A stretch of DNA of 64,000 bases from assembly GCF_056712565.1 (NCBI RefSeq), contig NZ_CM160072.1; one strand, written 5' to 3'. The notes below the pieces were generated by a model. That model did not search any database. It was given only the letters and a program-made list of their open reading frames with translations, and was not told the DNA's origin. Both the position numbers and the translations under genes were made by a program. The first letter of the stretch is position 1. Each line of letters starts with the position of its first letter. Positions 1 through 52,362 of the stretch are shown piece by piece.

Positions 1-1125
1 GTTGGCACCGTTGAAATTGAGGATCTACGGGTTATTCCGGTTATTTTTCTGCCCGGAGTCATGGGTTCAAACCTTATGGATAAGAAAGGAAAATCCATCT
101 GGCGATATGATGACTCTATGAGTCTGATGGGCTGGTCACTACCTACATCAGGACCAAAAGAGAGGAAAAGATTATTGCATCCTGACAGGGTGGAGGTCGA
201 TAATCGTGGGAGAATTCCCGCACCTCCGGATGCCCAAGAAAAACTTATTCAGTTAGGTCAACAATATCCGGAGGACCCATCCGATAAAGAAGCAATGGAT
301 AATTACACTCAGGCAGTACGTGACATTTTGGATAATATAGAGCCAGAAGCGAAATTATTTGGTTCAAGAAAAGATCGCGGCTGGGGAGAGGTTGCAAATG
401 CTAGCTACGGTTCCTTTCTCGATGTATTACAAACAGCATTGTACCGGGACAAACCTACAAAGAAAGGTGAGACGTTAAGTGCGACCTACCAGCAACTACT
501 CGATGTACCTTTGGGTTTGGAGTATGGTCCTGACTCACTTGATGAAGAGTATCTTGAAGTCATAAGGTTGTATCAATTTCCGGTCCATGTCGTTGGCTAT
601 AACTGGCTTGGTTCTAATATGCTCTCAGCAATCAGACTACAAGAACAGATCAAGAAAATTGTTGGAGGCTATCAAAAACGAGGAATGAAATGCCATAAAG
701 TTATTCTGGTTACGCATTCAATGGGAGGACTAGTGGCAAGGTACTTTTCAGAGTGTCTTTCGGGGAATACGGATGTCTACGGTATTGTTCATGGCGTATT
801 ACCATCAATTGGTGCTGCGGCGACATATACCCGAATGAAACGTGGAACTGAAAACCCAGAGTCAAATCCGGAAGGGTATGTTATCAGTCATATCTTAGGT
901 CGTAATGCAGCTGAAATGGTAGCTGTTTTTTCCCAGTCGCCAGGACCAATGGAATTACTACCCATGAATGATTATGGTGAAGAGTGGCTTAATATTGTCG
1001 ATCGTGATGGTAGTACATTAACGCTCCCTAAAAATCTTCCCATTAAAGAAGGTATTGCCCCCGAAGAACGCACCTACGCTGAACTTTATCTAAATAGAGA
1101 AAATTGGTGGATGAGAATCTATTGA
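1..1125 (+). CDS. Lipase-like alpha/beta-hydrolase, putative T6SS phospholipase effector (Tle-like); 5'-partial, N-terminal part
   Basis: Frame is open from base 1 (VGTVEIEDLRVIPVIFLPGVMGS...), so the gene starts upstream of the window. GxSxG nucleophile elbow GHSMGG, Ser codon at 718-720. Stops at 1123-1125. Confidence 0.55.
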   Translation, partial: VGTVEIEDLRVIPVIFLPGVMGSNLMDKKGKSIWRYDDSMSLMGWSLPTSGPKERKRLLHPDRVEVDNRGRIPAPPDAQEKLIQLGQQYPEDPSDKEAMDNYTQAVRDILDNIEPEAKLFGSRKDRGWGEVANASYGSFLDVLQTALYRDKPTKKGETLSATYQQLLDVPLGLEYGPDSLDEEYLEVIRLYQFPVHVVGYNWLGSNMLSAIRLQEQIKKIVGGYQKRGMKCHKVILVTHSMGGLVARYFSECLSGNTDVYGIVHGVLPSIGAAATYTRMKRGTENPESNPEGYVISHILGRNAAEMVAVFSQSPGPMELLPMNDYGEEWLNIVDRDGSTLTLPKNLPIKEGIAPEERTYAELYLNRENWWMRIY

Positions 1126-1718
1126 ATCCTTTTAATACTTCATTAAATCAAAAGCAAATTGATACTGATTGGAATATATATGAAAATTTAATTACTGAGA
1201 GTGTCAATCCATTTCATAAGCAAATTGCTGGAAAATATCATATCAATACTTACTCTTTCTATGGGAGAGCGAAATTGGGAGATATTCCTGAAGCGCATTT
1301 AACGCAGGAAAATGTTCTTTGGAAAGGCTCATTATCAATGGGAAAAAAAAGTGATATATCTTTAGAACCAAAATTCATTGATGGTCGTCTTGATTTAAAT
1401 GAAGTTGGTAACATTAGAACTATTAAGGATGAATTTTCTCCTGAAGAACAGGCGTGGGAAATAAATACTGACGACGGTGATACATATGTTAAGATAGGAC
1501 AGCGTTTTACATTACGAGACTCTTGTGAAAACGGGGATGGTACAGTACCTCTTCGTGCAGGACAAATCGTACACAAGAACATCCTAGAGCGTTTGGCTGT
1601 ACAGGTTTCTCACGAGGCTGCTTATCGAAATCCCGTTAGTCAGGCATTTGCATTACGTTCTATTATAAAAATAGCTCAGGAGGTAAAAAAGGATGGTAAA
1701 ATGTCATACTCTGATTAA
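1104..1718 (+). CDS. C-terminal portion of the same lipase-like protein in the -1 frame (carries candidate Asp and His of the triad); probable frameshift partner
   Basis: Contains ...GDGTVPLRAGQ... and ...VSHEAAYRNP... downstream of the Ser motif. This frame opens right after a stop at 1095-1097, only about 25 nt before the upstream ORF ends. Confidence 0.4.
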   Translation: MVDENLLNPFNTSLNQKQIDTDWNIYENLITESVNPFHKQIAGKYHINTYSFYGRAKLGDIPEAHLTQENVLWKGSLSMGKKSDISLEPKFIDGRLDLNEVGNIRTIKDEFSPEEQAWEINTDDGDTYVKIGQRFTLRDSCENGDGTVPLRAGQIVHKNILERLAVQVSHEAAYRNPVSQAFALRSIIKIAQEVKKDGKMSYSD

Positions 1719-2526
1719 CCGTAGAAATAAATGTCTGCTGATTGTTTTTATAGTCCTTATTGGATGGATTATATTCAGACCTAAAGCATATACTTATTCA
1801 CTAAATGATAAAGAAAAAGAGATGCTCATAATGTTATCACAACATCCTGAAACTCGGTACTTTGGATTTTATTCCATAGAACTTCCGGCTGATTACAAAC
1901 CAACAGGAATGGTTATGTTCATACAAGGATCGGCGATGATCCCTGTAGAAACAAAGCTACAATATTATCCTCCTTTTCTGCAATATATGACACGATATGA
2001 GGCAGAACTAAAAAACACCTCAGCATTAGATCCACTGGATACGCCTTATTTGAAGCAAGTTCACCCACTAAGTCCACCTATGAATGGAGTCATTTTTGAA
2101 CGAATGAAAGCGAAATACACCCCAGATTTTGCACGAGTATTGGATGCATGGAAATGGGAAAATGGCGTTACGTTTTCAGTAAAAATAGAAGCTAAAGATG
2201 GTAGAGCAACCCGCTATGATGGAATTAGTAAGATTGCCGAATACAGTTATGGATATAATATTCCAGAAAAAAAAGTACAGTTACTTACTATTCTTTCAGG
2301 ACTACAACCTCGTGCAGATAACCAACCCCCATCAGAAAATAAATTGGCGATACAATATGCACAGGTTGACGCTTCACTACTTGGAGAGTATGAATTATCT
2401 GTAGATTATAAAAATAGCAATAATATTAAAATAAGTTTGCAGACGGATAATAATAGTTATATTGACTCATTATTAGATATAAGATATCCGAGTAATGGAA
2501 ACAGAGCATGGTATAACTCTATATAA
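1693..2526 (+). CDS. Hypothetical N-terminally membrane-anchored protein; candidate immunity or accessory protein for the lipase
   Basis: Strong RBS AGGAGG 9 nt upstream of ATG 1693. N-terminal hydrophobic segment CLLIVFIVLIGWIIF. Overlaps the lipase 3' end (operon coupling). AT-rich. Confidence 0.4.
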   Translation: MVKCHTLINRRNKCLLIVFIVLIGWIIFRPKAYTYSLNDKEKEMLIMLSQHPETRYFGFYSIELPADYKPTGMVMFIQGSAMIPVETKLQYYPPFLQYMTRYEAELKNTSALDPLDTPYLKQVHPLSPPMNGVIFERMKAKYTPDFARVLDAWKWENGVTFSVKIEAKDGRATRYDGISKIAEYSYGYNIPEKKVQLLTILSGLQPRADNQPPSENKLAIQYAQVDASLLGEYELSVDYKNSNNIKISLQTDNNSYIDSLLDIRYPSNGNRAWYNSI

Positions 2527-2788
2527 AGGTCGTAAGAAAATTAATGGTCTGGAGATATCTGAATGGTGGGTTCGTAAGCAAATAATGTTGAACTCAGAAC
2601 CATCACGAGATTATGAATTCAATCTGGCAATCCATGAGGATAAGAAAAACAACAAACAGTTATTAAAACTTGTTATGAATTACAGTGTTGACATCTTACA
2701 CGCTGACAATGCATTAACTGAACATGAACTGATGGCGCTGTGGGAAAGTATAACAGGGACAATTAAATATCATCCCACGCAGTGGTAA
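2495..2788 (+). CDS. Small hypothetical protein (97 aa), candidate immunity-family protein
   Basis: ORF directly follows and overlaps the previous gene; a degenerate paralogous copy lies immediately downstream. Confidence 0.35.
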   Translation: METEHGITLYKGRKKINGLEISEWWVRKQIMLNSEPSRDYEFNLAIHEDKKNNKQLLKLVMNYSVDILHADNALTEHELMALWESITGTIKYHPTQW

Positions 2789-2807
2789 AGCAGATAATCA
2801 GAACAGT

Positions 2808-3176
2808 CTGGAGATATCGGAATATACTCGTGGTACTTCAAGTTGCATGGTACGCACAAGGCCCTTGTCGGAAAGGGCTTGGGCTACAGAACTCATTTAC
2901 GTGCATCTTCAAGTTTATCGGGTATAGTAGATTAAACAGCAGATCACGCTAAGTACTGACCCGCTGCAAAATTACAGGTTTTATCTGACAGTCCATGATG
3001 ATAAAAAGAATGGTGGTCAACGGTTAATACTTACGATGACTTATAGCATCAGACCTTCTGAATTCAAAAGAAGTCTTAACCGAACATGAACTGGTTGCCG
3101 TGTTGCAGCAAATGACCAGTACGCTGAAATACCCCCTCTCACAAAACATAAAGATAATGGTATCTCATTTATATCA
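2808..3176 (+). pseudogene. Decayed, frameshifted duplicate of the 2495-2788 gene
   Basis: Translations FYLTVHDDKKNGGQRLILTMTYSI and DLLNSKEVLTEHELVAVLQQMTSTLKYP (different frames) align to EFNLAIHEDKKNNKQLLKLVMNYSV...DILHADNALTEHELMALWESITGTIKYH of the upstream ORF. The 5' end tctggagatatcggaat repeats tctggagatatctgaat at 2549. Confidence 0.45.
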
Positions 3177-3251
3177 ATGACCGGGAATAGGCAACTATAC
3201 TTTCATTTTTTAAATTATTTTCCTGTTGTAAATAAATCAGAGGTAAAAATT

Positions 3252-3512
3252 ATGCCTGGGATCGTTTGTTTAGGTGATGCCACGACTCATGGTGGTAAGG
3301 TGATTACCGCAACTTCAACGCTTTTTATCAATGGCATTCAGGTAGCTCTCGTAGGTGATCTGGTTTCCTGCCCAAAGCACGGCGTGAATCCCATACAAGA
3401 AGGTGACCCGACAGCGACGGAAAAAGGTCGTAATGTCGTTGTTAATCATTGCCAATGTGCATGTGGCTGTAGGGTTATCAGTTCTCAACCAGAAAATAGT
3501 ATCGAGTCATAA
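3252..3512 (+). CDS. Small PAAR-like protein (about 86 aa), candidate T6SS spike-tip protein
   Basis: RBS GAGG before ATG 3252. Gly/Cys/His-rich pattern (CLGDATTHGGKVI...VALVGDLVSCPKHG...HCQCACGC) typical of PAAR. The ORF track start at 3177 is probably too far upstream. Confidence 0.55.
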   Translation: MPGIVCLGDATTHGGKVITATSTLFINGIQVALVGDLVSCPKHGVNPIQEGDPTATEKGRNVVVNHCQCACGCRVISSQPENSIES

Positions 3513-3513
3513 T

Positions 3514-4650
3514 ATGGGATGGCCTGTACCCGATATTCCAGAAAGAAAAATGCTACCTGAGCCTGTTTATCGACGCTGGATTATATTATTAATATCTATG
3601 TTAACAGTTGGTACTCTGTTTATTTTATCGGTCTGGAATTCTGCGACATACTGGGATATTTTTATTTATGGCGTTCTGCCAATGCTGTTTCTTTGGCTAT
3701 GTTTGTTTGGTATTGCGCTGAACAAATATGAACAATCCGTTGCAGCCTGTATAAGTTGGGAGTCTGAAAGACAACAAGTTAAACAACTCTGGCAACACTG
3801 GAGCCAAAAACAACTGGCAATAGTTGGGAATGTTCTTTTTACACCGGAAGAAAAAGGCATGAGTGTTTTACTGGGGCCACAGGAAGAGATCCCTGCATAT
3901 CCTAAAAAGGCACGACCGTTATTCTCTGCATCCCGTTATTCTCTTTCGTCTATATTCCATGATATTCACCAGCAACTGACACAACAATTTCCTGATTATC
4001 GTCATTATCTACATACTATCTACGTATTACAGCCTGAGAAATGGCGTGGAGAAACCGTGAGACAGGCTATTTTCCATCAATGGGACTTAGTACCTGAACG
4101 GACCAATACTCTTAATCAAATCCAGTCTCTTTATGATGAAAGATTTGACGGTCTAATTCTGGTTGTTTGTTTACAAAACTGGCCGGAGAATAAACCTGAA
4201 GATACGAGTGAACTGGTATCAGCACAGCTTATCTCCTCATCGTCATTTGTACGGCAGCACCAGATACCCGTTATTGCTGGTCTGGGGCGTGTAATGCCAT
4301 TAGAACCCGAGGAGTTGGAGCATAATCTGGATGTGTTATTTGAATATAACCAATTGGATAACAAACAACTACAGCATGTCTGGGTCTCTGGTTTAGATGA
4401 GGGAACGATAGAAAACCTTATGCAGTATGCTGAACAACATCAATGGTCACTTCCTAAAAAACGGCCCCTACACATGATTGATCATTCCTTTGGCCCTACA
4501 GGAGAGTTTATTTTTCCTGTCTCTCTGGCAATGCTGTCAGAGGCTGCCAAAGAAACTGAACAAAATCATTTAATTATCTATCAGTCAGCACAGTATGCTC
4601 AGAAAAAGAGCCTTTGCCTGATTACCCGGAAGCTTTATTTAAGGACATGA
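3514..4650 (+). CDS. Inner-membrane protein of unknown function (N-terminal TM segments plus cytoplasmic domain), encoded between PAAR and tssM
   Basis: ATG 3514 lies 1 nt after the PAAR stop. Hydrophobic segments RRWIILLISMLTVGTLFILSVW and IFIYGVLPMLFLWLCLFGIAL. Track start at 3403 would overlap the PAAR gene. Confidence 0.5.
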   Translation: MGWPVPDIPERKMLPEPVYRRWIILLISMLTVGTLFILSVWNSATYWDIFIYGVLPMLFLWLCLFGIALNKYEQSVAACISWESERQQVKQLWQHWSQKQLAIVGNVLFTPEEKGMSVLLGPQEEIPAYPKKARPLFSASRYSLSSIFHDIHQQLTQQFPDYRHYLHTIYVLQPEKWRGETVRQAIFHQWDLVPERTNTLNQIQSLYDERFDGLILVVCLQNWPENKPEDTSELVSAQLISSSSFVRQHQIPVIAGLGRVMPLEPEELEHNLDVLFEYNQLDNKQLQHVWVSGLDEGTIENLMQYAEQHQWSLPKKRPLHMIDHSFGPTGEFIFPVSLAMLSEAAKETEQNHLIIYQSAQYAQKKSLCLITRKLYLRT

Positions 4651-4659
4651 GGAAAAATA

Positions 4660-7600
4660 ATGCATACTCAGCGTTACGGTTTCTGGGGATATTTAATTCT
4701 GATTATTGGTTTGGCAGGGATTTGCGCTCTGTTAATTATTATTAATCAGGATGTTCTGATAAAGAGCGGAGTGTCTGCTCGTCTGATATGGGGAATATGG
4801 GCGGGATTATTTTCTCTTTTTTTACTTGGGGTTGTGTGTTCGCCGTTCTGGTGGATCCGGAAGCAAAGGAAAGCGCAATTTATTTACAGACCAAAAAATT
4901 CGGCAGAAAACGACCAACCCGTATCTTCTCCATCAGAGGATATTTTAACCGATCTCAGCTCAAATATTCGGTTACGCTATGGTCCGTTCTGGCGGCGTAA
5001 AGTCCGCCTGCTGCTGGTGACCGGCGAGCCTGAAGAGGCAGAGGCCATCGCGCCGGGGCTGACCGGGCAACACTGGCTGGAGGGCGACCACACCGTGCTG
5101 ATATATGGCGGCAGGCCAACAGCGGAGCCTGATGTCACACTGCTGACCGCCTTAAAAAAACTGCGCCGCAGCCGTCCGCTGGACGGCATCATCTGGCCGC
5201 TGACAGAAGAACAAAGCCGCCAGACCGCACAACTCGACAAAGGCTGGCGCGAACTGATAAACGGCGGTAAGCGACTCGGTTTTCAGGCTCCACTCTATTT
5301 GTGGCAGGTCTGTGACGACGGTGATTATCAGACCGGACGCCCCCTGCAAAGCGTCGGCTGCCTGCTGCCGGAACGCTGTACCCCGGAACAACTGGCTGTA
5401 ATGCTGGAAGCACAAACCCTGCCGCTGACGGAACAGGGCATGTCGCAACTGCTGGCGGATAACCGCCATGATTTCCTGCTGCGTCTGGCCCATACCCTTG
5501 CAGAGCGGGGTATCGCTCACTGGCAAAGCGTTCTGAAACCGCTGCTGGCAGGCGGCGCATTTTCTTCCCTGCGCCTGCGTGGCCTGATGTTCAGCCCGCC
5601 GCTTGCCGCCGTGCCGGAGGCCGCACCTCATGCGTGGCTGCCGTCACCGGTCTGGGCGGGCGTGACGGGTGATAACGCGCGCGGGCGCACGGTGGGTTTT
5701 CCGTGGCTGCGTACCGCACTGATGTCCGCTGTCTGCGTGCTGGTGATATGGGGGGCCGGAATGACGACCTCGTTCTTCGCCAACCGCGCTCTTGTTCAGG
5801 AAACCGGTATCCAGACGGCGCGTGCGCTCGATACCCGCCTGCCGCTGGCAGAACAACTGGTGGCGCTGCATACCCTGCAGGGCGAACTGGAACGCCTGCA
5901 ATACCGTATCCGCGAAGGTGCGCCGTGGTATCAGCGTTTTGGCCTTGAACGTAACCAACAACTGCTCGCCGCCGCTTTTCCCGGCTATGCGCAGGCGGCA
6001 AACCGGCTGGTGCGCGACGTGGCCGTTGACCATCTGCAACAGCAACTTAATGCCTTTGTCGCGCTGCCGCCCAACAGTCCTCAGCGTACCGCCACCGGTG
6101 AACAACGCTATAAGCAGCTTAAGGCATTGCTGATGACTTCCCGCCCGGAAAAGGCCGACGCTGCCTTTTTCAGTACCACGCTGATGGCGGACGGTCTGCG
6201 CTACGAGAATATCCCGGAAGGTGTGCGGCAGAGCGTGTTGCCGTCACTGCTGACCTTCTGGACGGCGAACCTGCCGGAACACCCGCAGTGGAAAACATCG
6301 CCGCCACCGGAACTGACCGGCGCAGTGCGTAAAATCCTGCTGCGCCAGATTGGTGTGCGTAATGCCGAAAACACCCTCTACCAGAACGTGCTGCAACAGG
6401 TGTCCCGCAACTACGCCGATATGACGCTGGCGGACATGACCGGGGATACCCTCACCGAATCTCTTTTCAGTACGGAACAGACGGTGCCGGGGATGTTCAC
6501 CCGTCAGGCGTGGGAAGGACAGGTCAGGGAAGCCATCGAGCAGGTGGTGACGGCGCGGCGCGAGGAAATCGACTGGGTACTCAGCGACCGCCAGCAGGAT
6601 ACCTCTGCGGATATCTCGCCGGATACGCTGCGTAACCGTCTCACCTCACGCTACTTTACCGACTTTGCCGGAAGCTGGCTGGCGTTTCTCAACAGCATTC
6701 GCTGGAAAAAGGAAGACTCGCTCTCCGGCATTCTCGACCAGCTGACACTGATGGCCGATGCCCGTCAGTCGCCACTGATTGCGCTGACGGACACCCTCGC
6801 GTGGCAGGCGGCGGCAGGCAGGGAAAACCGTGGCCTGTCAGACTCGCTGGCGAAATCGGCACAGGAACTGTTTAACGGCAAGGAGAAAACGCCGCAGCAA
6901 TCCCGTGAAGGCAACGAGCCTGTCGGGCCGCTGGATAAAACCTTCGCGCCGCTACTGCGGTTGCTGGGCGATAAGGCAGGAGGCGGTGGTGGTGATACGC
7001 AACTCAGCCTGCAAACGTATCTGACCCGCGTCACCCGCGTGCGTCTCAAACTGCAACAGGTGACCAACGCCCCCGACCCGCAGGAGATGACCCAGCAACT
7101 GGCGCAGACGGTTTTACAGGGCAAAACCGTTGACCTCACCGACACCCGCGACTACGGACGGTTAATCGCCGCCAGTCTGGGCGAGGAATGGAGTGGCTTC
7201 GGTCAGGCGCTGTTCGTCCGCCCGGTGGAGCAGTCGTGGCGGCAGGTGCTGACGCCTGCGGCGGACAGCCTGAACCGTCAGTGGCAGCGGGCGATAGTCA
7301 GCCACTGGAATCAGGACTTCGCCGGGCGCTATCCGTTCAAAGCCTCACAAAACGATGCCTCTCTTCCCCTGCTGGCACAGTATCTGCGCGATGACGGGCG
7401 CATCAACCAGTTTATCGCCGCCAACCTTTCCGGTGTTCTGAAACGTGAAGGCCGCTACTGGGTGGCTGACGCCATGAACACGCAGGGGCTGACGGTTAAC
7501 CCGGACTTTATCCGCGCCCTGAACCGCCTGCGTGACGTGGCCGACACCGCCTTTGCCAGCGGCGATGCGGGAATACATTTCGAACTGCGGGCAAAACCGG

Positions 7601-8013
7601 CGCGTGACGTGATGAAAACGCATCTGGTGATTGACGGGCAGGAGCTGGAATATTTCAACCAGAAGGAACGCTGGCAGCGTTTCAACTGGCCGGATGAACA
7701 GTGGCAACCCGGCGCATCGCTGAGCTGGACCAGCACGCAGGCGATGGAACGCATTCTGGCGGATTACCGGGGAAGCTGGAGCCTTATTCGCCTGCTGGAA
7801 CAGGCGCAGGTGACACCGGTGGACAGCAGCACCTTTAAGGTGGTGTGGAAAGCGCAGGATGGCCTGCCGCTGAATTACCTGCTGCGGGTTGAACAGGGTA
7901 AAGGGCCGCTGGCGCTGCTGGAGCTGAAAAACTTCCGCCTGCCGGGACAGGTATTTCTGACCGGCAGGAGTATGAAGGATGCGGAAGAGTATGGGGAAGA
8001 CGCCGATGAGTGA
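4660..8013 (+). CDS. tssM: TssM (IcmF-like) T6SS membrane-complex protein, 1117 aa
   Basis: Good RBS GAGGAAAAATA before ATG. Two N-terminal TM helices, cytoplasmic domain, third TM near residue 350 (LRTALMSAVCVLVIWGAGMTTSFF), long periplasmic C-terminal domain. Size and topology fit TssM. High GC. Confidence 0.8.
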   Translation: MHTQRYGFWGYLILIIGLAGICALLIIINQDVLIKSGVSARLIWGIWAGLFSLFLLGVVCSPFWWIRKQRKAQFIYRPKNSAENDQPVSSPSEDILTDLSSNIRLRYGPFWRRKVRLLLVTGEPEEAEAIAPGLTGQHWLEGDHTVLIYGGRPTAEPDVTLLTALKKLRRSRPLDGIIWPLTEEQSRQTAQLDKGWRELINGGKRLGFQAPLYLWQVCDDGDYQTGRPLQSVGCLLPERCTPEQLAVMLEAQTLPLTEQGMSQLLADNRHDFLLRLAHTLAERGIAHWQSVLKPLLAGGAFSSLRLRGLMFSPPLAAVPEAAPHAWLPSPVWAGVTGDNARGRTVGFPWLRTALMSAVCVLVIWGAGMTTSFFANRALVQETGIQTARALDTRLPLAEQLVALHTLQGELERLQYRIREGAPWYQRFGLERNQQLLAAAFPGYAQAANRLVRDVAVDHLQQQLNAFVALPPNSPQRTATGEQRYKQLKALLMTSRPEKADAAFFSTTLMADGLRYENIPEGVRQSVLPSLLTFWTANLPEHPQWKTSPPPELTGAVRKILLRQIGVRNAENTLYQNVLQQVSRNYADMTLADMTGDTLTESLFSTEQTVPGMFTRQAWEGQVREAIEQVVTARREEIDWVLSDRQQDTSADISPDTLRNRLTSRYFTDFAGSWLAFLNSIRWKKEDSLSGILDQLTLMADARQSPLIALTDTLAWQAAAGRENRGLSDSLAKSAQELFNGKEKTPQQSREGNEPVGPLDKTFAPLLRLLGDKAGGGGGDTQLSLQTYLTRVTRVRLKLQQVTNAPDPQEMTQQLAQTVLQGKTVDLTDTRDYGRLIAASLGEEWSGFGQALFVRPVEQSWRQVLTPAADSLNRQWQRAIVSHWNQDFAGRYPFKASQNDASLPLLAQYLRDDGRINQFIAANLSGVLKREGRYWVADAMNTQGLTVNPDFIRALNRLRDVADTAFASGDAGIHFELRAKPARDVMKTHLVIDGQELEYFNQKERWQRFNWPDEQWQPGASLSWTSTQAMERILADYRGSWSLIRLLEQAQVTPVDSSTFKVVWKAQDGLPLNYLLRVEQGKGPLALLELKNFRLPGQVFLTGRSMKDAEEYGEDADE

Positions 8014-9616
8014 ACTGTTGCAAAAGCTGACCCGTAGCTGTTTTGCCGACCGGGATGCACTGGATGTGGCGCGAACACAGGCGGCGCTGTGGCAGACATG
8101 GCTGCTGCCGGTGACGGCAGACACGCCGGTCGGGGAAGACCCCGGCTACCACGACGATTTCCTGCGTATACGCGACGAAATGAACAAACTTTCCGGCACA
8201 GATACCGGCCTTATCTGCCAGCTTGCCGAATCCCTGCTGCTGACGCAGGCCAAAGACGTGCGCATCGCCACTTACTACATCTGGGCGCGACTGCACCGCG
8301 ACGGTGAGCGCGGACTGGCGGAAGGACTGGCGCTGCTGACCGGACTGGTGGAACGCTTCGGTACGCAACTGCTGCCCTCGCGTCCGGCCAGCCGGAAAAT
8401 GGCGCTGGAGTGGCTGGCAGGGGAAAAGATGCTCGACAGCCTTGCCCGCTACCCGGAAGTGGCAAAAGAGGATTTTGCGAACATTGTTGCCGCTCTTAAT
8501 CAACTGACGGTTTCCTTCACTGCATGGCCCGAAGACCAGCATTCCCCCTCCCTGATGCCACTGATTAACGCGCTGGAATCACGTCTGGCGCAGTCGGGCG
8601 GGATGAACGCGGTGGTGCCGCAAAACAGCAGCAGCGTTACTGCACCGTCATCCCCGGTGGATGCGCCACAGGTACAGACCATCACCTCCGGGCGTGACCT
8701 GCTCGACCAGGCGAAAGTGCTGGCCCGTTATCTGAACGAACAGCCGCAGGGCTGGCTTTCGGCGCACCGGCTGATGAAAACCCTGCGCTGGGACACGGTG
8801 CATGAACTGCCGCCGGATGTGGACGGCAAAACCCGGCTGGCCCCGCCGCGCACCGAGTCACGCAACCAGCTTAAGCGGCTGTATGCCCAGCAGAACTGGA
8901 CGGAACTGCTGGAGCAGGCCGACCTGATGTTCAGCACCGGCGTCAGCCATTTCTGGCTGGATATCCAGTGGTATCTGCATCAGGCGCTGACTAAGGCGGG
9001 CGTACCGTGGGACAGGTGGACAGCTGTTATCCGTCAGGACCTGGCGTTACTGCTGGAACGCCTGCCAGGGCTGGAAAATCTGGCATGGAACGACGGCACG
9101 CCGTTCGCCGATGAGGTGACGCGCAACTGGATAGCGCAGCAGGTCATGATGCGGGAAGACGGCGCATGGCTTGCGGGGAAAGCCGCTGTACCGACAGACG
9201 ACGCCACAAATGACGTACTGGCGCTGGAGCCGGAAGCACTGGCGATGGCAGACAGTCAGGGCGTGGAAGCGGCGCTGGGCTGGATACAGACCCGTCCGGG
9301 CATCACCACGGCACGACAGCGCCTGTTATTGCGACTGCTGATGGCGCGGGTGGCGGAACAGTACGGTAAAAACGAGATGGCGCTCCTGCTGCTGGAAGAA
9401 CTGGATACCGCCGCACAGGGAATAACGCTGACGCAGTGGGAGCCAGAACTGCTGTTTGAAGTAAAAGCCCGGCAACTGAAACTGCTGCGTCTGCGGGCGC
9501 ACCGCTATGCGGATAAAGCCCTGCTGAACCGAAAAATGGAAATCCTGCTGGGAACGCTGGTGGCAATCGATCCGGCACGGGCAGCGGTACTGTGTGATAC
9601 GCAACATAAGGACTGA
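8006..9616 (+). CDS. tssA: TssA (ImpA N-terminal domain protein)
   Basis: ImpA_N-like signature ...PVGEDPGYHDDFLRIRDEMNKL...IATYYIWARL...GLALLTGL. ATG 8006 overlaps the tssM stop (ATGAGTGA); alternative in-frame starts at 7979 and 7991. Confidence 0.75.
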   Translation: MSELLQKLTRSCFADRDALDVARTQAALWQTWLLPVTADTPVGEDPGYHDDFLRIRDEMNKLSGTDTGLICQLAESLLLTQAKDVRIATYYIWARLHRDGERGLAEGLALLTGLVERFGTQLLPSRPASRKMALEWLAGEKMLDSLARYPEVAKEDFANIVAALNQLTVSFTAWPEDQHSPSLMPLINALESRLAQSGGMNAVVPQNSSSVTAPSSPVDAPQVQTITSGRDLLDQAKVLARYLNEQPQGWLSAHRLMKTLRWDTVHELPPDVDGKTRLAPPRTESRNQLKRLYAQQNWTELLEQADLMFSTGVSHFWLDIQWYLHQALTKAGVPWDRWTAVIRQDLALLLERLPGLENLAWNDGTPFADEVTRNWIAQQVMMREDGAWLAGKAAVPTDDATNDVLALEPEALAMADSQGVEAALGWIQTRPGITTARQRLLLRLLMARVAEQYGKNEMALLLLEELDTAAQGITLTQWEPELLFEVKARQLKLLRLRAHRYADKALLNRKMEILLGTLVAIDPARAAVLCDTQHKD

Positions 9617-18327: not shown

Positions 18328-19284
18328 TCACAACACGTTTTTTATCTCCCTTCCTGCGAAGTAATCAATTATCGACTGGGCAACGTGTATCCCGGTTTGC
18401 TGGTATGACTCAACGGTGGCGGCCGCGATATGCGGCGTTGTAATGATATTTTTGGCATGTAGCAGTGGGCTAAATTGCGCCAACGGTTCAGAGCTAAACA
18501 CATCCAGCGCCGCAAACACATTTCGTTCTTCAATCACCTGAAGTAAAGCGCCCTCATCCAGCAACTTTCCCCTTGCGGCATTGATGATCAGAGCACCATT
18601 GCGCATCATCGACAAATATTTATGACTAATGAAGTTCTCCAGCTCAGAAGAAAAAGGCAAAAGAACAATGATGACATGCGACTGCATAAAGATATCTTCA
18701 ATTGATACAAACTGAACTCCAGCTTTGTCAGCAACCTGATAGTCGGGTTGTTTGTCAAAAGCTAAAAGCTCAACATCAAAACCGGATAACCTTTTCGCCA
18801 GAGTTTTACCTATATTACCGTAGCCAACCAGGCCAATCCGTTTCCCTTGTAATTCACAGCCATGCGACTCACCCCAGTAGCCATTTTGCATCGCATGATA
18901 GCTGCCAGGGATATTTCTCATGCTCGCGAAGATAAGTCCAATGATAAATTCCGCAACCGCATTTGAATTAATCCCAACCGCATTATTGACAACAATACCG
19001 GATTGCTGTGCCGCACGAAGATCAATATTGTCTATCCCCGTCCCGAATCTCGATATTATTCTCACACCAGGCAGCAATGATAGCGTGTCCGCCTGATAAC
19101 CATCTTTTCCGGCGATGACCGCGCAAATAGATTCTCGTAATGCAGTGGATTCTGATTTAAGCAGATGCTCCACATTATTCTTAATAATAAGATTAAAATT
19201 ATTCTCTCTTAGCAACTTGCTGGCGGAAACACAGCGTGCTGAAAAGCTGGGGAAGGTGACCAGAACATTTTTCATAGCGGACAC
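18328..19284 (-). CDS. D-isomer-specific 2-hydroxyacid dehydrogenase family, NAD-binding (318 aa)
   Basis: GxGxxG motif GLVGYGNIGK and overall family pattern. Last gene of the minus-strand operon. Confidence 0.75.
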   Translation of the reverse strand: MSAMKNVLVTFPSFSARCVSASKLLRENNFNLIIKNNVEHLLKSESTALRESICAVIAGKDGYQADTLSLLPGVRIISRFGTGIDNIDLRAAQQSGIVVNNAVGINSNAVAEFIIGLIFASMRNIPGSYHAMQNGYWGESHGCELQGKRIGLVGYGNIGKTLAKRLSGFDVELLAFDKQPDYQVADKAGVQFVSIEDIFMQSHVIIVLLPFSSELENFISHKYLSMMRNGALIINAARGKLLDEGALLQVIEERNVFAALDVFSSEPLAQFSPLLHAKNIITTPHIAAATVESYQQTGIHVAQSIIDYFAGREIKNVL

Positions 19285-19346
19285 TCACTTCAAAGAACGC
19301 CACCCCAAAAGATGGCGTGACCGGTTACTGTATTTATATTTTGAAA

Positions 19347-19943
19347 TTATGAATTTGCTTTAATGCCGAGTGCACCTCCTGGATGATATAAGCCGAAATC
19401 AGCACGAGTAAATTTTTTCAATTCAGAGAGTGCAAGCGCCACCGCATCACCAACAACCAGAACAACAGTCGACGAGCATGACGGTGCTAAACCTAAATTA
19501 TCCGCCTCACTTTTGACGGGGATTTCAACAGATAAATCACAACTTATCGCAAGCGATGAGTGATGACTGCGGGTAAAAGAGATCAAATAATTACCCATTT
19601 TTTTCAAACTAGGCAGTGTCGCCAGGATTTCCGCCGTCTCACCACTGTTTGAAATAAGAATAACAACATCGTCTTTCGCCACCATTCCAAGGTCGCCGTG
19701 TACCGCTTCCGTACCGTGAACAAAAAACGAGGGAGTTCCGGTACTGGCAAAAGTTGCTGCGAGTTTTCTGGCAATAATACCGGACTTACCAACACCAATA
19801 AAAACAACTTTTCCCTGACAAGATTGTAATACTTTAATTAAATTAGCGAATTCAGAAAGTGGGGAATAAATAACCTCTTCTACTGCTTTAAGTTCGTTAT
19901 GCATAAAATGTTTAATGAGATAGATAAGATCCGTGTTATTCAT
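19347..19943 (-). CDS. SIS-domain sugar-phosphate isomerase-like protein (198 aa)
   Basis: SIS signature VFIGVGKSGIIARKLAATFASTGTPSFFVH...ISNSGET. Confidence 0.7.
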   Translation of the reverse strand: MNNTDLIYLIKHFMHNELKAVEEVIYSPLSEFANLIKVLQSCQGKVVFIGVGKSGIIARKLAATFASTGTPSFFVHGTEAVHGDLGMVAKDDVVILISNSGETAEILATLPSLKKMGNYLISFTRSHHSSLAISCDLSVEIPVKSEADNLGLAPSCSSTVVLVVGDAVALALSELKKFTRADFGLYHPGGALGIKANS

Positions 19944-19945
19944 TT

Positions 19946-21121
19946 TTATTCTCCCTGATTAATATTTTTAATTACACTCACAAGACGCGTAAGCCCCATA
20001 TATAATTTTTCTCGACCGCAGGCCAGGTTCAGACGAAGGTAGCCCTCCCCCTCCGTTCCATAGACATGCCCCGCCATAATGCCCACTTTGCCTTCATGAA
20101 TTAATCGACTGTAGAATTCATCAAAAGGATAACCAATAGCAGAACAATCTATCCAGGAAAAATAGCAACCATCAGCTGGCCTTACGATCAATTCTGGAAT
20201 ATTTTCATTCAGATACTGCTGGGTGAATTGAATGTTAGAGGCAATATGTGCCTTTAATGACTTTAACCATCCCTCACATTCGTTATAGGCAATAATAGTT
20301 GCAATTATATTCAGTACTGATGGGGAGTTTACAAAATCGCGATACCTCGATATCGTTCTGAACTTATGATTAAAATTATCGTCAGTTGAAATCATATACG
20401 ATCCTGTTAGTGCAGGAACATTAAATGTTTTCGATATCGAGTTAAATACTACTACTTTTTCTTTTTTTATTTTAAGCGCGGATGTAAAGCTACGATTAAA
20501 AACAAAATCACTATGGATTTCATCTGAACATAACCAGACATTATGCCTTGTACAGCTTGCAGCGATTTTATGCAGTTCTTCTTCCGACCAGACTGTTCCT
20601 GTCGGGTTATGAGGATTACATAATAACACCATCTTTGCGCTTTTAATCTTAAGATCAAAATCTTGCCAGTTGATAGCGTAGCCCCCCTCATTTTTTATAA
20701 TCAAAGAGGCTGTCAGAATATTTCGCTCGCTATGTTTAATTACATCAAAAAATGCATTATAGACAGGTGTAAAAACGAGAATATTATCACCATGCGATGT
20801 CAATAACTCTATTGCTTTTGCAATAGAGTACATCACACTGGGGCTATAGGTTATCCATTCAGGTTTAATATCTGTTTGATATTGTTGATAATACCAGTTT
20901 ACTATCGCATTCAGATATTCACCATGTTGCCAACGACTGTACCCTAAAATCGGGTGTTCCAGGCGTTTTTTTAATGCTCTGGTGATAGCGTCTGGTATCG
21001 GAAGATCCATATCTGAAATAGAGAATGGTAGTACATCTTTTACACCAAATCTGTCCTCGCAAAAGTCCCATTGGGTACAATATGTTCCTTTGCGGGAAAC
21101 AGGAGTATTAAAAACATCCAT
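19946..21121 (-). CDS. PLP-dependent aminotransferase class I/II, MalY/PatB-like C-S lyase (391 aa)
   Basis: Family pattern including the lysine-containing ...NSISKTFN... region. Overlaps the start of the upstream gene by 1 nt. Confidence 0.75.
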   Translation of the reverse strand: MDVFNTPVSRKGTYCTQWDFCEDRFGVKDVLPFSISDMDLPIPDAITRALKKRLEHPILGYSRWQHGEYLNAIVNWYYQQYQTDIKPEWITYSPSVMYSIAKAIELLTSHGDNILVFTPVYNAFFDVIKHSERNILTASLIIKNEGGYAINWQDFDLKIKSAKMVLLCNPHNPTGTVWSEEELHKIAASCTRHNVWLCSDEIHSDFVFNRSFTSALKIKKEKVVVFNSISKTFNVPALTGSYMISTDDNFNHKFRTISRYRDFVNSPSVLNIIATIIAYNECEGWLKSLKAHIASNIQFTQQYLNENIPELIVRPADGCYFSWIDCSAIGYPFDEFYSRLIHEGKVGIMAGHVYGTEGEGYLRLNLACGREKLYMGLTRLVSVIKNINQGE

Positions 21122-22701
21122 CAGTATATCCCCATATAGTTATCCATATCCCGACGCAGGGCGATGACTTTAGTGCCGATAATGACTTGTAGGGTATTTT
21201 GATCAAGTTTAACAACCGCAATCCCGCCAGCTCTTTTTATTGCAACTTCGTCAATCAATCCCATATCTGCGATTGTTAAACGTAAACGAGTTACGCAATT
21301 ATCCAGTGACTTAATATTCTCTTTACCACCAAGTGCCTTAACCATCTGCTCCGCCGCTTGCAGCTCTGATTTATCAGGAGTTGGGATATCCGCTATAGCC
21401 GTATCTTCGTGAACGTTCAGCGTGACAGGATTGGACTCTTCACGGCCTACGGTCATCAGGTTAAATTTAAGAATGGTCCAACGGAACACAAAGTAATAAA
21501 TGAAGAAATAGGCCACTTCGACACACACCGCGATCGGCCAACCTGTTCTTGTGCCACGCAATACGCCAAAGCTAATAAATTGAATCAGATCGCCAGTAAA
21601 TCCCATCTTCACGCCCATATATGGCAGAACCATGTTAGCGAATCCATTCATAAAGGCATGGAAGACAAACAGCAGTGGACTGACAAATAAGAACAGAAAC
21701 TCAATCGGTTCGCTGACGCCGCCAATAATCACCGTAAGCACCCCGGAAATAAGCAATGCTTTGATAGCCTTTCTGTTTTGAGCATGAGCAGTGCGATACA
21801 TCGCCAGCGCGGCACCAGCCAGACCATACTGAATCATCAGTTTGCCCTGCTCCATTTTCCCCGCCAAATCCAGCGGAATGACCGCATTCTCTTTAACGTA
21901 TGCCATAAACATGTTCAGGGTGCCGTAATATTCTTCGCCGCCAATCACAGCCGAACCGCCGATTGGCGTAAAGCGGAAAACTGACGTCACCAGATGGTTT
22001 AAGCCAAAAGGAATCGTCACACGTTCGGCAACTGCATAGAAGAAATAACCAACAGGACCGGAAGTTGAAATCCAGTGTCCAATGAGCATGAAAAGATTGA
22101 AAAACGGCGGCCAGATAAAAGGAATGATCAGACCAAATCCACTCATCACAATCAGTGTAATGATAGGCACCAGACGTGGGCCGCTATAAAAACCTAATGA
22201 TTCTGGAATGCGTAAATTAACGATCTTTTTATACATGCTGGCGACTAATAACCCAGCAACAATTCCCCCCAACACGCTGGTATTGTAGGACTGGATCCCC
22301 AGAATGATGGTTTGCCCATGTGTCGACATTTGGTCAGCAACGACCAATAAGTCGTGCTGTTTAAGATAAAAGTTCGTTCCCAGATGCATCGCCATAAAAC
22401 CAATTAAGCCAGAAAAAGCACCATAGGCTTTATCCTCTTTATCTTTTAATAATCCTAAGGGAATCGCTATCGCAAACAATACAGGTAAATTAACAAAGGC
22501 AAACAAACCAAGACTAACAATGAAATCAAGTATGGTTTTAATTATTGGAATAGCCAGAAATGGAATTAACTTTGCCATATCATCACTGGCTAAACCACTT
22601 CCCAGCCCTAGCATCATGCCACATACACTTAGCAGAGCAATGGGATACATAAATGCCTTCCCCAGGCTCTGAAAAAAACTCCAGGCTTTCTTTTGTTTCA
22701 T
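21121..22701 (-). CDS. PTS EIICB component, glucose/maltose family (526 aa)
   Basis: Multi-TM EIIC domain and C-terminal EIIB domain with the phospho-cysteine motif NCVTRLRL. Confidence 0.8.
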   Translation of the reverse strand: MKQKKAWSFFQSLGKAFMYPIALLSVCGMMLGLGSGLASDDMAKLIPFLAIPIIKTILDFIVSLGLFAFVNLPVLFAIAIPLGLLKDKEDKAYGAFSGLIGFMAMHLGTNFYLKQHDLLVVADQMSTHGQTIILGIQSYNTSVLGGIVAGLLVASMYKKIVNLRIPESLGFYSGPRLVPIITLIVMSGFGLIIPFIWPPFFNLFMLIGHWISTSGPVGYFFYAVAERVTIPFGLNHLVTSVFRFTPIGGSAVIGGEEYYGTLNMFMAYVKENAVIPLDLAGKMEQGKLMIQYGLAGAALAMYRTAHAQNRKAIKALLISGVLTVIIGGVSEPIEFLFLFVSPLLFVFHAFMNGFANMVLPYMGVKMGFTGDLIQFISFGVLRGTRTGWPIAVCVEVAYFFIYYFVFRWTILKFNLMTVGREESNPVTLNVHEDTAIADIPTPDKSELQAAEQMVKALGGKENIKSLDNCVTRLRLTIADMGLIDEVAIKRAGGIAVVKLDQNTLQVIIGTKVIALRRDMDNYMGIY

Positions 22702-22732
22702 GTGGGTTATCTCATATAAATGTTATATATAA

Positions 22733-23557
22733 TTAGTCCATTAATACTTTGGTACGAATAGAGAGATATAATTTTTCTTCTAAAATTAATTCATATTTAA
22801 AAGTGGCATACAGATACCGTTCAATTTCATGAATTGCGCGCTGTAACAGGATGTCCTTTTCAAGAAACTGTTCATAGATATCACCAATATCTTTCTGTTT
22901 TATTTTTTCATTGCATAACACGCGACTTGAAAAATATTTAAGGTGCATCATAAATCTGGAATAGTTAAATGAACTTCTGTCCACCTTTCTGTTATAAACA
23001 ACTTCAATAAGCTCCGTGATTATTTGCGACAACTCAATAATCCGTACTGATTCATAATCAACTGAATTTTCATAATTATTTAAAATATGCAATGCTATAA
23101 AACCAATCTCATCATCAGGAAGTTGAACGCTGAATTGCTCATTAATGATAGTTAATGCATCGCGACTTATCGCATACTCTGCTTTGTACAACGCTTTGAT
23201 TTCATCAAGGAAAACATTATTAATTTGTATACCTGAAACGACTCGGGATATTGCATTCGAAATGTGATCCGCAAGAATCAATAGTAGCGATGGATTGAGA
23301 TTTTTTTCGAGATTTTTCTCCGCATATTGCACTATTTTTTCGGCAACAAACACATACTCAATATCTACATGTTCAATCAATTTATAAAGTTTGTTTTTTT
23401 GTTCATTTCTGACATAAAAAATCCGGTTAGCCGGATGCTCAGGGACCGACATTCCATATTTTTTGTTGTAACCGACGCCAGGCCCAGAAATGATAACCTC
23501 CTGTCCATTCATCGATGCCTGTACACAATTATTGTTCATGACTTTTTCGATGATCAT
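22733..23557 (-). CDS. BglG/LicT-family transcription antiterminator (CAT RNA-binding domain plus two PRDs)
   Basis: N-terminus MIIEKVMNNNCVQASMNGQEVIISGPGVGYNKKYG resembles the CAT domain of BglG/LicT. The start is moved in from the track ORF because a terminator/RAT leader lies immediately upstream. Confidence 0.75.
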   Translation of the reverse strand: MIIEKVMNNNCVQASMNGQEVIISGPGVGYNKKYGMSVPEHPANRIFYVRNEQKNKLYKLIEHVDIEYVFVAEKIVQYAEKNLEKNLNPSLLLILADHISNAISRVVSGIQINNVFLDEIKALYKAEYAISRDALTIINEQFSVQLPDDEIGFIALHILNNYENSVDYESVRIIELSQIITELIEVVYNRKVDRSSFNYSRFMMHLKYFSSRVLCNEKIKQKDIGDIYEQFLEKDILLQRAIHEIERYLYATFKYELILEEKLYLSIRTKVLMD

Positions 23558-23568
23558 TCCATGGCTCC

Positions 23569-23642
23569 AAAAAAAAAGGCAAGGCACGTCAGAAGTAATA
23601 ACTACTTCAAACATTGCCTTGCCTGATTTAACAGTTACAAGA
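23569..23642 (-). promoter_or_regulatory. RAT-like sequence overlapping a leader terminator (PRD-antiterminator attenuator)
   Basis: On the minus strand, cttgtaactgttaaatcaggcaaggca resembles the bgl RAT (ttgttactg...caggcaaaacc). It overlaps the 5' arm of a hairpin (ggcaaggca / tgccttgcc, inner gaagta/tacttc) that is followed by 9 U, 12 nt before the ATG. Confidence 0.55.
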
Positions 23643-23814
23643 TGATTAACTAATGCGTATACATTACACGGAATTGTGCTTAATTAAAGAGATGGTCGGC
23701 TTATTTTTCAAGCCGACATTCAAATATCCGACATCAGTCACAAAACCAGCGTCTAATATTCAGGTAAATGTTATCTATTCAACGAAATATAAATTCATTG
23801 AATAAATAAAAACA

Positions 23815-25068: not shown

Positions 25069-25299
25069 GCCTCTCCCGAGCAAAAGAAATCTAAGCTGTG
25101 TAACAAGTAAACGACCAATTTGACCGGAAACTTTAGCGAAAGACGCATAATCTGTCATCTATAAAACGGTAAACATTCTTTTTATATTCACGGTATTACT
25201 GATAAAAAACTCGCTCCCGCATAAAATTTACACTTGCACCCTGCGAAAAAACAGAATAAAAATACAATAATTTCGAATAATCATGCAAAGAGGTATACC

Positions 25300-52160: not shown

Positions 52161-52248
52161 AAAAAAAACCTGCGCATCCGCGCAGGTTGGTGCAAGAGAC
52201 TGGGTACGAAGAGCGTACCGAATAATCTCACCAATCAATACCTCTGGG
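52161..52248 (-). ncRNA. omrA: Small regulatory RNA OmrA
   Basis: Minus strand begins CCCAGAGGUAUUGAUUGGUGAGAUUAUUCGGUACGCUCUUCGUACCC and ends in the terminator hairpin CCUGCGCGGAUGCGCAGG plus U8. Recognised from memory of the E. coli OmrA sequence. Confidence 0.85.
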
Positions 52249-52362
52249 ATCTTGATTGTGGTCTGCACGACGACTCTTCGCCAGCGAGAAAACGCAAAGG
52301 AATGAAGGGAAATGCAACGAGGTGTGTAAATTGTCGGTTACTGTTACAGATTGATGACCGGC

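Follow-up and report, generated by a model that had tools for sequence, protein, structure and literature searches.

Two separable modules, a type VI secretion island and a phosphotransferase islet, make up the mosaic metV-amiC region of an ST95-like Escherichia coli

What occupies the chromosomal site between the tRNA-Met gene metV and amiC in an extraintestinal pathogenic Escherichia coli (ExPEC), and did its content arrive as one island or as several pieces? We analysed a 64,000-nt stretch of contig NZ_CM160072.1 (RefSeq assembly GCF_056712565.1), referred to hereafter as the window, which comes from a phylogroup-B2, sequence type (ST) 95-like ExPEC strain. A preliminary description, made from the letters of the window alone, had read positions 1-23814 as a single accessory block next to amiC, composed of a segment of a type VI secretion system (T6SS) locus and a phosphotransferase system (PTS) operon. 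This stretch is the amiC-proximal ~24 kb, i.e. the right-hand two thirds, of a ~36-kb accessory region lying between metV and amiC, and the region consists of two independently segregating modules: a T6SS island of ~30.6 kb and a PTS islet of 5.6 kb. We are highly confident that the region is the published pathogenicity island PAI-metV of ExPEC, that is, a T6SS-1-class locus together with the pafR/pafP PTS operon.

In E. coli K-12 (JM109) the gene order is mltA-metZ-metW-metV-amiC, with a gap of 73 bp between metV and amiC. In the window, 23.8 kb of other DNA precede amiC (23815-25068, minus strand), the first core gene, and homology with K-12 sets in precisely at the stop codon of this gene (TAA in the window, TGA in K-12). 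All strains inspected encode the identical AmiC protein, WP_000016907.1. The absence of metZWV and mltA from this side of amiC, already remarked on in the preliminary description, extends to all 64 kb of the window, where neither a tRNA-Met gene nor mltA is found and the sole tRNA gene is that for tRNA-Gly (CCC) at 63453-63526. The content further upstream was read from a near-identical genome, NZ_CP098206.1 (99.996% identity to the window), in which the order is mltA-metZWV-tssBCKL-tagL-hcp-tssH-vgrG, then the content of the window, then amiC, with 12.4 kb between metZWV and the point that corresponds to window position 1. The structural genes that had been presumed to lie outside the window are indeed there: tssB, tssC, tssK, tssL, tagL, hcp, tssH (clpV) and vgrG, as well as metZWV, stand directly upstream. 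Three genes that the description had not listed, tssJ, tssE and a VasL-domain gene, are also in the window.

The occupancy of the site was determined in 5,426 complete E. coli genomes with four 401-bp junction queries, counting the places that covered at least 80% of a query. The metV/amiC junction, corresponding to the empty site, was found in 3,500 genomes, the metV/PTS junction (PTS only) in 597, the T6SS/PTS junction (both modules) in 1,086, which makes it the most common occupied state, and the junction between the T6SS and a K-12-type spacer (T6SS only) in 249. These counts sum to 5,432 for 5,426 genomes and thus account for essentially every genome. Independent counts agree with the census, the PTS operon being present in 1,686 of the 5,426 genomes and the right arm of the T6SS in 1,280-1,419. 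Annotated examples are metV-amiC in K-12, metV-PTS-amiC in strains CLSC36 and O111:H8, metV-T6SS-repeat-PTS-amiC in the window and in Nissle, and metV-T6SS-repeat-amiC in CRE10. Since the site is empty in 64.5% of complete E. coli genomes, the block is accessory, as had been proposed; it replaces the short metV-amiC spacer of K-12, and K-12-like genomes, when checked for it, lacked it and showed an uninterrupted metV-amiC junction. The idea of a core region that was lost only in K-12 is ruled out, the empty site being the majority state. What did not stand is the unity of the block, which resolves into two separately bounded units with a metV repeat between them at 18235-18275.

One might still regard the T6SS and PTS parts as one composite island, gained and lost as a single unit: they are neighbours in the same metV-amiC interval, they are found together in the 1,086 genomes that form the commonest occupied state, and the literature treats them together as the 32-kb PAI-metV. 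However, in 597 genomes metV is followed at once by the PTS operon and the T6SS is missing, and 249 genomes lack the PTS and have the K-12-type spacer after the T6SS. Between the two parts stands a copy of the metV 3′ end, and other genera possess the PTS operon without an adjoining T6SS of this kind. A single composite unit is ruled out by the four-state census, and we give it practically no credence.

The boundary between the two modules is marked by a direct repeat. A 41-bp sequence, GGCCCCCGCAACCAATTTATTAGAATGCTGACAAACCGCAA, is present in perfectly identical copies at the true 3′ end of metV (positions 13121-13161 of locus L003, the corresponding region of the near-identical genome) and at 18235-18275 of the window (plus strand). 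This right copy comprises the last 14 nt of metV and 27 nt of downstream sequence, and it is here that the T6SS island ends and the PTS islet begins. The two repeats delimit a segment of 30.6 kb. The border check suggested in the preliminary description, directed at tRNA-Met genes and direct repeats, thus yielded both, with metV upstream and the 41-bp repeat at both T6SS ends. When the window was searched with probes from the metV 3′ end, a 25-nt probe gave no match and a 16-nt probe matched at 14 of 16 positions at 18233-18248; the alignment of PTS-only genomes with the window starts at 18235, the position of the metV remnant. Past the repeat, the left copy continues into an island-specific terminator loop, whereas the right copy continues into the sequence that follows metV in PTS-only strains, with a metV-type intrinsic terminator hairpin (18270-18301, plus strand; CCGCAA...TTGCGG followed by a T run) that is common to these strains. 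At the outer borders, homology with K-12 stops directly after the metV CCA on the left and resumes at the amiC stop codon on the right.

The T6SS-only strain CRE10 bears on the position of the insertion point. It has the same T6SS right end and an intact MucR-family gene, followed by GGCCCCCGCAACCA and then by the K-12-type spacer. PTS-type and K-12-type contexts have 17 bp of the repeat in common, and in either context the right junction carries a duplicate of the 14-nt metV 3′ end. As the right junction of CRE10 carries GGCCCCCGCAACCA and a K-12-type spacer, the insertion point of the T6SS is the metV 3′ end, whatever lies downstream. T6SS-only strains, CRE10 among them, have this MucR-family gene, which encodes 182 amino acids (aa), intact where the island ends on the right. 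Comparison of window 18040-18160 with positions 25160-25900 of the CRE10 locus (L007) revealed that a remnant of it persists in the window, consisting of the GTG start and ~10 codons (~33 nt; 18092-18124, plus strand), and the BLAST break falls at 18124, the end of this remnant.

These borders would be explained if a T6SS island of ~30.6 kb had inserted at the 3′ end of the tRNA-Met gene metV, regenerating an intact metV on its left and leaving the 14-nt copy of the metV 3′ end on its right (18235). The annotation of the near-identical genome lists neither an integrase nor a recombinase for the 36-kb region (unannotated open reading frames [ORFs] were not screened), and it places no gene in the 635-bp interval from metV to tssB or in the 208-bp interval from vasL to the repeat. 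Because no integrase is present, the T6SS element would now be fixed in place, and it may have spread within the species through homologous recombination of its flanks. Some of these observations weigh against the proposed insertion. The lack of an annotated integrase is one; another is that the duplicated tRNA 3′ end is the sole trace from which we infer site-specific integration. In addition, the 41-bp identity in B2 strains, which exceeds the 17 bp of CRE10, could reflect later gene conversion or another crossover point rather than the original attachment site.

The region is also heterogeneous in base composition. Relative to 1-kb windows of the core part (23815-64000; mean GC content 51.4%, standard deviation 3.2), a sliding 1-kb GC profile displays sharp steps. 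Two segments are GC-rich, namely 4660-9616 (tssM-tssA; 60.1%, z +2.7) and 12898-18026 (tssF-vasL; 56.4%, z +1.6), and three are AT-rich, namely the cassettes at 1-4659 (39.6% GC, z -3.7) and 9617-12897 (37.7%, z -4.3) and the PTS operon at 18328-23814 (40.2%, z -3.5). At the level of genes, GC content ranges over 55-61% in the T6SS core genes, 30-46% in the cargo cassettes and 34-44% in the PTS operon. The segments of the island thus depart from the composition of the host chromosome by z scores of -4.3 to +2.7, in keeping with the mosaic of GC-rich tss genes and AT-rich cargo and PTS genes noted in the preliminary description. The GC steps match the boundaries of between-strain indels or replacements to within a few bases (4975, 9617/9618, 12897/12898 and 18235).

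Comparison between strains showed what these segments are. The GC-rich backbone is conserved at 96-100%. Alignment of the window with Nissle, a CFT073-like strain, is confined to 4975-9617 (96.5%) and 12898-24000 (98.6%); Nissle has a Tli3/Tle3 pair after vgrG, and its tssA stop and tssF start are separated by 33 bp, with nothing equivalent to 9618-12897. The cargo of CRE10 consists of DUF4123 and Tle1 genes, a second vgrG, a gene for an SLT-domain protein and insertion sequence (IS) elements. The first cassette as present in the window (1-4974) was found in 139 genomes, including S88, NU14 and EV36, which form an ST95-like set, and the second (9618-12897) in 158. The PAAR head of the second cassette (its first 343 nt) is present at ~91% identity in 1,155 genomes, and elsewhere it is joined to other toxin tails, e.g. 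a colicin E3/pyocin S6-type cytotoxin. That is, the GC-rich stretches are the conserved structural backbone and the AT-rich stretches are exchangeable effector/immunity cassettes. A backbone receiving such cassettes at two sites, one after vgrG and the other between tssA and tssF, would produce the GC mosaic.

An alternative is that the mosaic results from differing selective or mutational regimes acting on genes of a single origin, for instance H-NS silencing or relaxed selection. AT-rich accessory genes of Enterobacteriaceae are commonly H-NS targets, and several of the AT-rich genes here are pseudogenes, both of which would fit. Nevertheless, such regimes are very unlikely to account for GC steps that coincide with between-strain indel and replacement boundaries, for unrelated genes occupying the same slots across strains (Tle3/Tli3, Tle1, Tle4 or no cassette), or for a conserved PAAR head with a swapped toxin tail. 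The AT-rich cassettes are neither orthologous nor collinear across T6SS-positive strains, and the overall pattern is the signature of cassette exchange and not of drift in situ. Because the GC steps lie at cassette-exchange boundaries, the mosaic supports assembly from different sources; this had been suggested earlier, and it also agrees with the variation of the AT-rich parts between strains and with the independent occurrence of the T6SS and the PTS.

The PTS islet extends over 5.6 kb between the 41-bp repeat and the amiC stop codon. Its five genes, all on the minus strand (18328-23557), are the pafR/pafP operon, corresponding to c3405-c3410 of PAI-metV. In the order of transcription they encode a LicT/BglG-type antiterminator (PafR, 22733-23557; full-length match to NF046042 LicT, E 7e-67, 225.6 bits against a cut-off of 300), a MalX-like enzyme IICB (EIICB) permease (PafP, 21121-22701; TIGR02004, E 1e-160, below the cut-off), a PatB/MalY carbon-sulfur (C-S) lyase (19946-21121; NCBIfam match above the cut-off), a SIS-domain KpsF/GutQ-like protein (19347-19943) and a D-2-hydroxyacid dehydrogenase (18328-19275), the NCBIfam matches of the last two being below the cut-off. 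The operon is absent from 69% of complete E. coli genomes, and its alleles within the species diverge down to 92% nucleotide identity; UTI89, F11 and ATCC 25922 carry it at 99.4-99.7%.

The operon is preceded by a leader (23569-23641, minus strand) that contains a terminator hairpin (23578-23623) and a U9 tract (23569-23577) and ends just before the Shine-Dalgarno sequence and start codon of pafR. The predicted fold has a free energy of -39.7 kcal/mol (z -4.7), and none of 200 shuffled sequences was as stable. A motif resembling a ribonucleic antiterminator (RAT), CUUGUAACUGUUAAAUCAGGCAAGGCA, overlaps the 5′ arm of the hairpin, as judged by eye against the consensus; no Rfam family matched the leader. 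A promoter/terminator consensus scan of 17900-24000 gave no more sites than shuffled sequence, the leader hairpin being missed owing to its long loop. The leader fits LicT/BglG-type antitermination, and the PTS operon is probably controlled through this RAT/terminator arrangement. As in the BglG/LicT PTS operons (E. coli bgl and B. subtilis licT/bglPH), an antiterminator gene with PTS regulation domains (PRDs) is followed by an EIICB permease gene, and the leader holds a terminator hairpin whose 5′ arm is overlapped by the putative RAT. Unlike in bgl and licT, the downstream paf genes encode a PatB/MalY-type C-S lyase, a SIS protein and a 2-hydroxyacid dehydrogenase rather than a phospho-beta-glucosidase.

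Where did the PTS operon come from? Relatives were sought by scanning one genome per species with the EIICB protein (loci L013-L018). Escherichia whittamii has the same five-gene operon between amiC and the tRNA-Met cluster (94-98% aa identity), and Atlantibacter hermannii has it between amiC and three tRNA-Met genes followed by mltA (67-85%). In two Citrobacter species the operon adjoins a tRNA-Asp gene, aspV, in the yafV...aspV-dnaQ-rnhA region. An Enterobacter carries a divergent four-gene version. Outside the enterobacteria, a collinear version with four genes occurs in Enterococcus termitis, aa identities being 71% for EIICB, 52% for PatB, 54% for SIS and 36% for LicT. The GC content of the operon is 10-13 points below that of its flanks in E. 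whittamii, Atlantibacter and both Citrobacter species, and 4 points below in the Enterobacter version; in Enterococcus termitis the operon (36.8%) differs little from its flanks (36.3%). The simplest reading would be an origin in low-GC Firmicutes, followed by spread among Enterobacteriaceae to tRNA-adjacent sites. On this reading the pafRP islet would stem from Firmicutes and would have taken up residence next to tRNA 3′ ends, the tRNA gene concerned differing between enterobacterial genera.

Two points tell against this account of the islet. The Enterococcus link is a single locus, and the site of the operon, which E. whittamii and A. hermannii share with E. coli, fits an ancestral presence followed by loss in K-12-like lineages as well as it fits gain. 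Indeed, the operon could have been ancestral at the metV-amiC site, before the divergence of Escherichia, with the K-12-type empty site arising by a secondary deletion spread by recombination. This would agree not only with the shared amiC/tRNA-Met site in E. whittamii (94-98% aa) and A. hermannii, but also with the degree of divergence in the latter: its operon proteins (67-85% aa identity) have diverged about as much as the products of its flanking core genes have from those of E. coli (recD 66%, amiC 83%, mltA 88%, argA 92%). The divergence of E. coli alleles down to 92% nucleotide identity is a further argument, as is the GC content of the operon: with 40% in E. coli and 46.5% in A. hermannii, a host of higher GC, it follows what partial amelioration would predict. 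On the other hand, in those enterobacterial hosts the flanks still exceed the operon by 10-13 GC points, the operon is missing from 69% of complete E. coli genomes, and no remnant of it was found in the K-12 spacer. Moreover, the Citrobacter copy resides at another tRNA gene, aspV, with similar divergence, which implies that the operon has moved between tRNA-adjacent sites. We consider ancestral presence a serious contender that falls somewhat short of an even chance.

The island, its site and its flanking repeat are already known, and the window represents their ST95-type allele. PAI-metV of CFT073 has been published (PMC2907695, PMC3573123), the second of these papers listing an island of 32 kb, and a homologous T6SS downstream of metV was described in E. 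coli W and CFT073 (PMC3032704). The maltose/glucose-specific PTS genes c3405-c3410 lie inside PAI-CFT073-metV and are retained in all uropathogenic E. coli (UPEC), E2348 and SMS-3-5 (PMC2831201), and pafR is encoded on the metV island (PMC8882828). The window resembles PAI-CFT073-metV (c3385-c3410) in occupying the same metV-amiC site with a T6SS cluster followed by the c3405-c3410 operon, and CFT073-like Nissle aligns with it at 96.5-98.6% over the backbone and PTS operon. It differs in its cargo: Nissle has Tli3/Tle3 and lacks a tssA-tssF cassette, whereas the window contains a Tle4/Tli4 pair that has decayed and, in addition, a 3.3-kb cassette encoding a PAAR toxin. This is the ST95-type configuration, common to S88 and NU14.

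The T6SS-1 locus of ST131 (Cummins et al. 2023) measures 39,211 bp, is flanked by a perfect repeat of 41 bp and contains a second, different tssA gene; in ST131 clade C, ISEc12 is inserted in tssM (PMC10711316). The window shares with it the site, the backbone, the 41-bp repeat, the second tssA-like (VasL-domain) gene and tagL. The ST131 locus, at 39.2 kb, has three vgrG genes and other effectors (M23 peptidase, lytic transglycosylase and DUF4123/DUF2235 proteins), whereas the island of the window has ~30.6 kb, one annotated vgrG and an intact tssM. Both parts of the region have been given functions in published work, PAI-metV and the paf genes being linked to urinary-tract fitness and T6SS-1 to competition between bacteria. 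What is added here is the two-module structure, the four quantified site states, the explanation of the GC mosaic and the low-GC Gram-positive pointers for the PTS operon. Current understanding of the island is unchanged, and the sole lead with some novelty is a Tce1-like PAAR toxin with a candidate immunity gene.

This toxin is encoded in the tssA-tssF cassette (9617-12897). The gene at 9622-11199 (plus strand; GC 42%) specifies a PAAR-fused polymorphic toxin in which a PAAR domain (residues ~10-66) is followed by a beta-sandwich and a predicted cysteine-protease-fold domain of the caspase-like type (clan CD). In family searches Pfam returned the N-terminal PAAR motif only, NCBIfam and PADLOC returned no match, and a search of PDB sequences returned chance matches to TRPV3 only. 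The AlphaFold2 (AF2) model is confident over residues 116-525, and the C-terminal domain is predicted to adopt a caspase-like (clan CD) alpha/beta fold related to that of Tce1 of P. aeruginosa. Across 30 homologues, the most distant with 41% identity, H328-G329 and C375-R376 do not vary and A374 hardly does; in the model H328 and C375 each follow directly after a beta-strand, making them the candidate catalytic His and Cys, in this order. The toxin of the window did not match the Pfam family DUF4347 (PF14252), which 3 of the 30 family members matched (best E 3.6e-6), and a profile search of the toxin against PDB sequences gave no match; there was likewise no match to Tce1 at the sequence level.

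The homologues occur in several architectures. They are PAAR-fused in Phytobacter and Salmonella, VgrG-fused in one Serratia and stand-alone proteins of ~440 aa in Xenorhabdus, Yersinia, Serratia, Enterobacter, Cronobacter, Klebsiella and Photorhabdus; relatives of ~315 aa exist in Acinetobacter. In Yersinia mollaretii and Serratia rubidaea the toxin homologue belongs to a T6SS cluster, after vgrG and a DUF4123 adaptor gene, and immediately downstream of it lies a homologue (45-47% aa identity) of the window ORF 11274-11828 (plus strand; GC 36%). The product of this ORF had no family match in NCBIfam, Pfam, PADLOC or PDB-sequence searches and has an N-terminal hydrophobic segment, as judged by eye. 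Its conserved position after the toxin homologue in Yersinia and Serratia marks it as the likely gene for the cognate immunity protein, and a toxin accompanied by a conserved candidate immunity gene suggests an antibacterial role. The cassette also contains a small hydrophobic ORF (12085-12528, plus strand; GC 29.5%), annotated as DUF1240 in related strains, whose product matched nothing in NCBIfam, Pfam, PADLOC or PDB-sequence searches.

A description from 2026 presents Tce1 and Tce2 as putative cysteine-protease T6SS effectors that are loaded by Hcp3 and lack immunity genes, Tce1 having a DUF4347 domain (PMC13323088). These P. aeruginosa proteins are cargo of the Hcp lumen and are thought to be anti-eukaryotic, whereas the window protein is PAAR-fused with a conserved candidate immunity gene downstream, and its Yersinia/Serratia homologue depends on VgrG and a DUF4123 adaptor. 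We tentatively propose, with somewhat less than even confidence, that 9622-11828 encodes an antibacterial effector-immunity pair of an uncharacterised class, comprising a PAAR-delivered caspase-like cysteine protease and a membrane-anchored immunity protein conserved in Yersinia, Serratia and E. coli. If true, the Tce class, so far Hcp-loaded, immunity-less and anti-eukaryotic, would come to include interbacterial toxins borne by PAAR/VgrG spikes.

The post-vgrG cassette (1-4659) begins with a VgrG-linked lipase gene, annotated as an esterase/lipase family protein, that starts 41 nt before the window. Its N-terminal fragment occupies 1-1125 and its C-terminal fragment 1107-1718 in another reading frame (both plus strand), the latter aligning to residues ~390-589 of the intact NU14 and MS1266 proteins. 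There is a Pfam match to PGAP1-like alpha/beta hydrolases around the THSMG nucleophile motif, and the intact NU14 allele (589 aa) matches PDB entry 4R1D, which we take to be the Tle4-Tli4 complex, with an E value of 4e-44. By these matches the VgrG-linked lipase is classed as a Tle4-family effector, a phospholipase. At ~1100 a 10-bp deletion has removed one copy of the tandem AAATTGGTGG relative to NU14, splitting the gene into ORFs of 388 and 203 aa, and S88 has the same lesion. In NU14 (589 aa) and MS1266 (598 aa) the lipase is intact and reads ...NWWKLVDENLL... and ...KWWKLMDENLL..., respectively, across the lesion site. The Tle4-family gene of the window is thus a pseudogene. So is the Tli4-family immunity gene (1693-2788, plus strand; named Tli4 family in RefSeq), which is split into overlapping ORFs at 1693-2526 (277 aa) and 2495-2788 (97 aa) that together align end to end with intact proteins of 372 and 367 aa in MS1266. 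That strain has two intact tli4 copies, and in NU14 tli4 is split too, although the lipase is intact.

Two further genes complete this cassette. A small stand-alone PAAR spike-tip protein is encoded at 3252-3512 (plus strand; PAAR domain-containing in RefSeq, with an NCBIfam T6SS_PAAR_dom match at E 2.8e-5, below the curated cut-off). Between it and tssM lies a conserved T6SS-associated gene of 378 aa (3514-4650, plus strand), named 'KPHS_23130 family T6SS system protein' in the annotation of S88. Its product has a 95% aa-identical copy at the same position in MS1266 and zero matches in Pfam, NCBIfam, PDB sequences and PADLOC.

The backbone genes of the window are all on the plus strand. tssM (4660-8013; GC 59.5%) is an intact ORF for the ImcF-related membrane-complex subunit; its NCBIfam match (TIGR03348, E 6e-78) scores 262.9 bits, under the cut-off of 388.15, and the protein is clearly ImcF-related. 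The strain-variable segment includes the first ~315 nt of tssM (4660-4974), since most other T6SS-positive strains show megablast similarity from 4975 onwards only; the cassette-exchange boundary therefore lies inside the 5′ end of tssM and not between genes. tssA (8006-9616; GC 61.1%) matches TIGR03362 with 477.5 bits against a cut-off of 230. The baseplate genes tssF (12898-14658) and tssG (14622-15701) and the lipoprotein gene tssJ (15682-16218) match TIGR03359, TIGR03347 and TIGR03352, respectively, all above the curated cut-offs, and tssE (16222-16650) is named in the RefSeq annotation of the near-identical genome; GC content is 51-59% over the genes from tssF to tssE. The last gene (16650-18026) encodes a VasL-domain protein by RefSeq annotation, with a TssA-like N-terminus (TIGR03362 on the N-terminal part, E 9e-16), which we presume to be TagA-like. 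It is the 'second tssA' of the ST131 locus description (PMC10711316).

Taken with the upstream genes of the near-identical genome, the T6SS-1 core set is complete, with the 13 core genes tssA-tssM in the described order plus tagL; the assignment to the T6SS-1 (Sci-1-like) class is that given in PMC10711316 for the homologous ST131 locus. tssH is annotated as frameshifted in NZ_CP098206.1 (1099345-1101991, i.e. 3346-5992 of L003); Nissle and CRE10 have an intact copy. This lesion and the broken Tle4/Tli4 pair hint at decay of the system in the lineage, or at assembly errors. A T6SS that may be partly decayed in this strain is a point against regarding the locus as a working system.

Beyond the island, 24-64 kb of the window is K-12-like core. 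From amiC the gene order is argA, recD, recB, ptrA, recC, ppdC, ygdB, ppdB, ppdA, thyA, lgt, ptsP, rppH and mutH, and it continues via aas, galR, lysA, lysR, araE, kduD, kduI, yqeF and yqeG to glyU. An Rfam scan of the entire window found OmrA, OmrB and the tRNA-Gly only, with zero matches inside the island. The OmrA and OmrB small RNA (sRNA) genes lie in tandem at 52161-52445 (minus strand), near aas-galR (RF00079, 98 and 86 bits), and this pair is ordinary core content.

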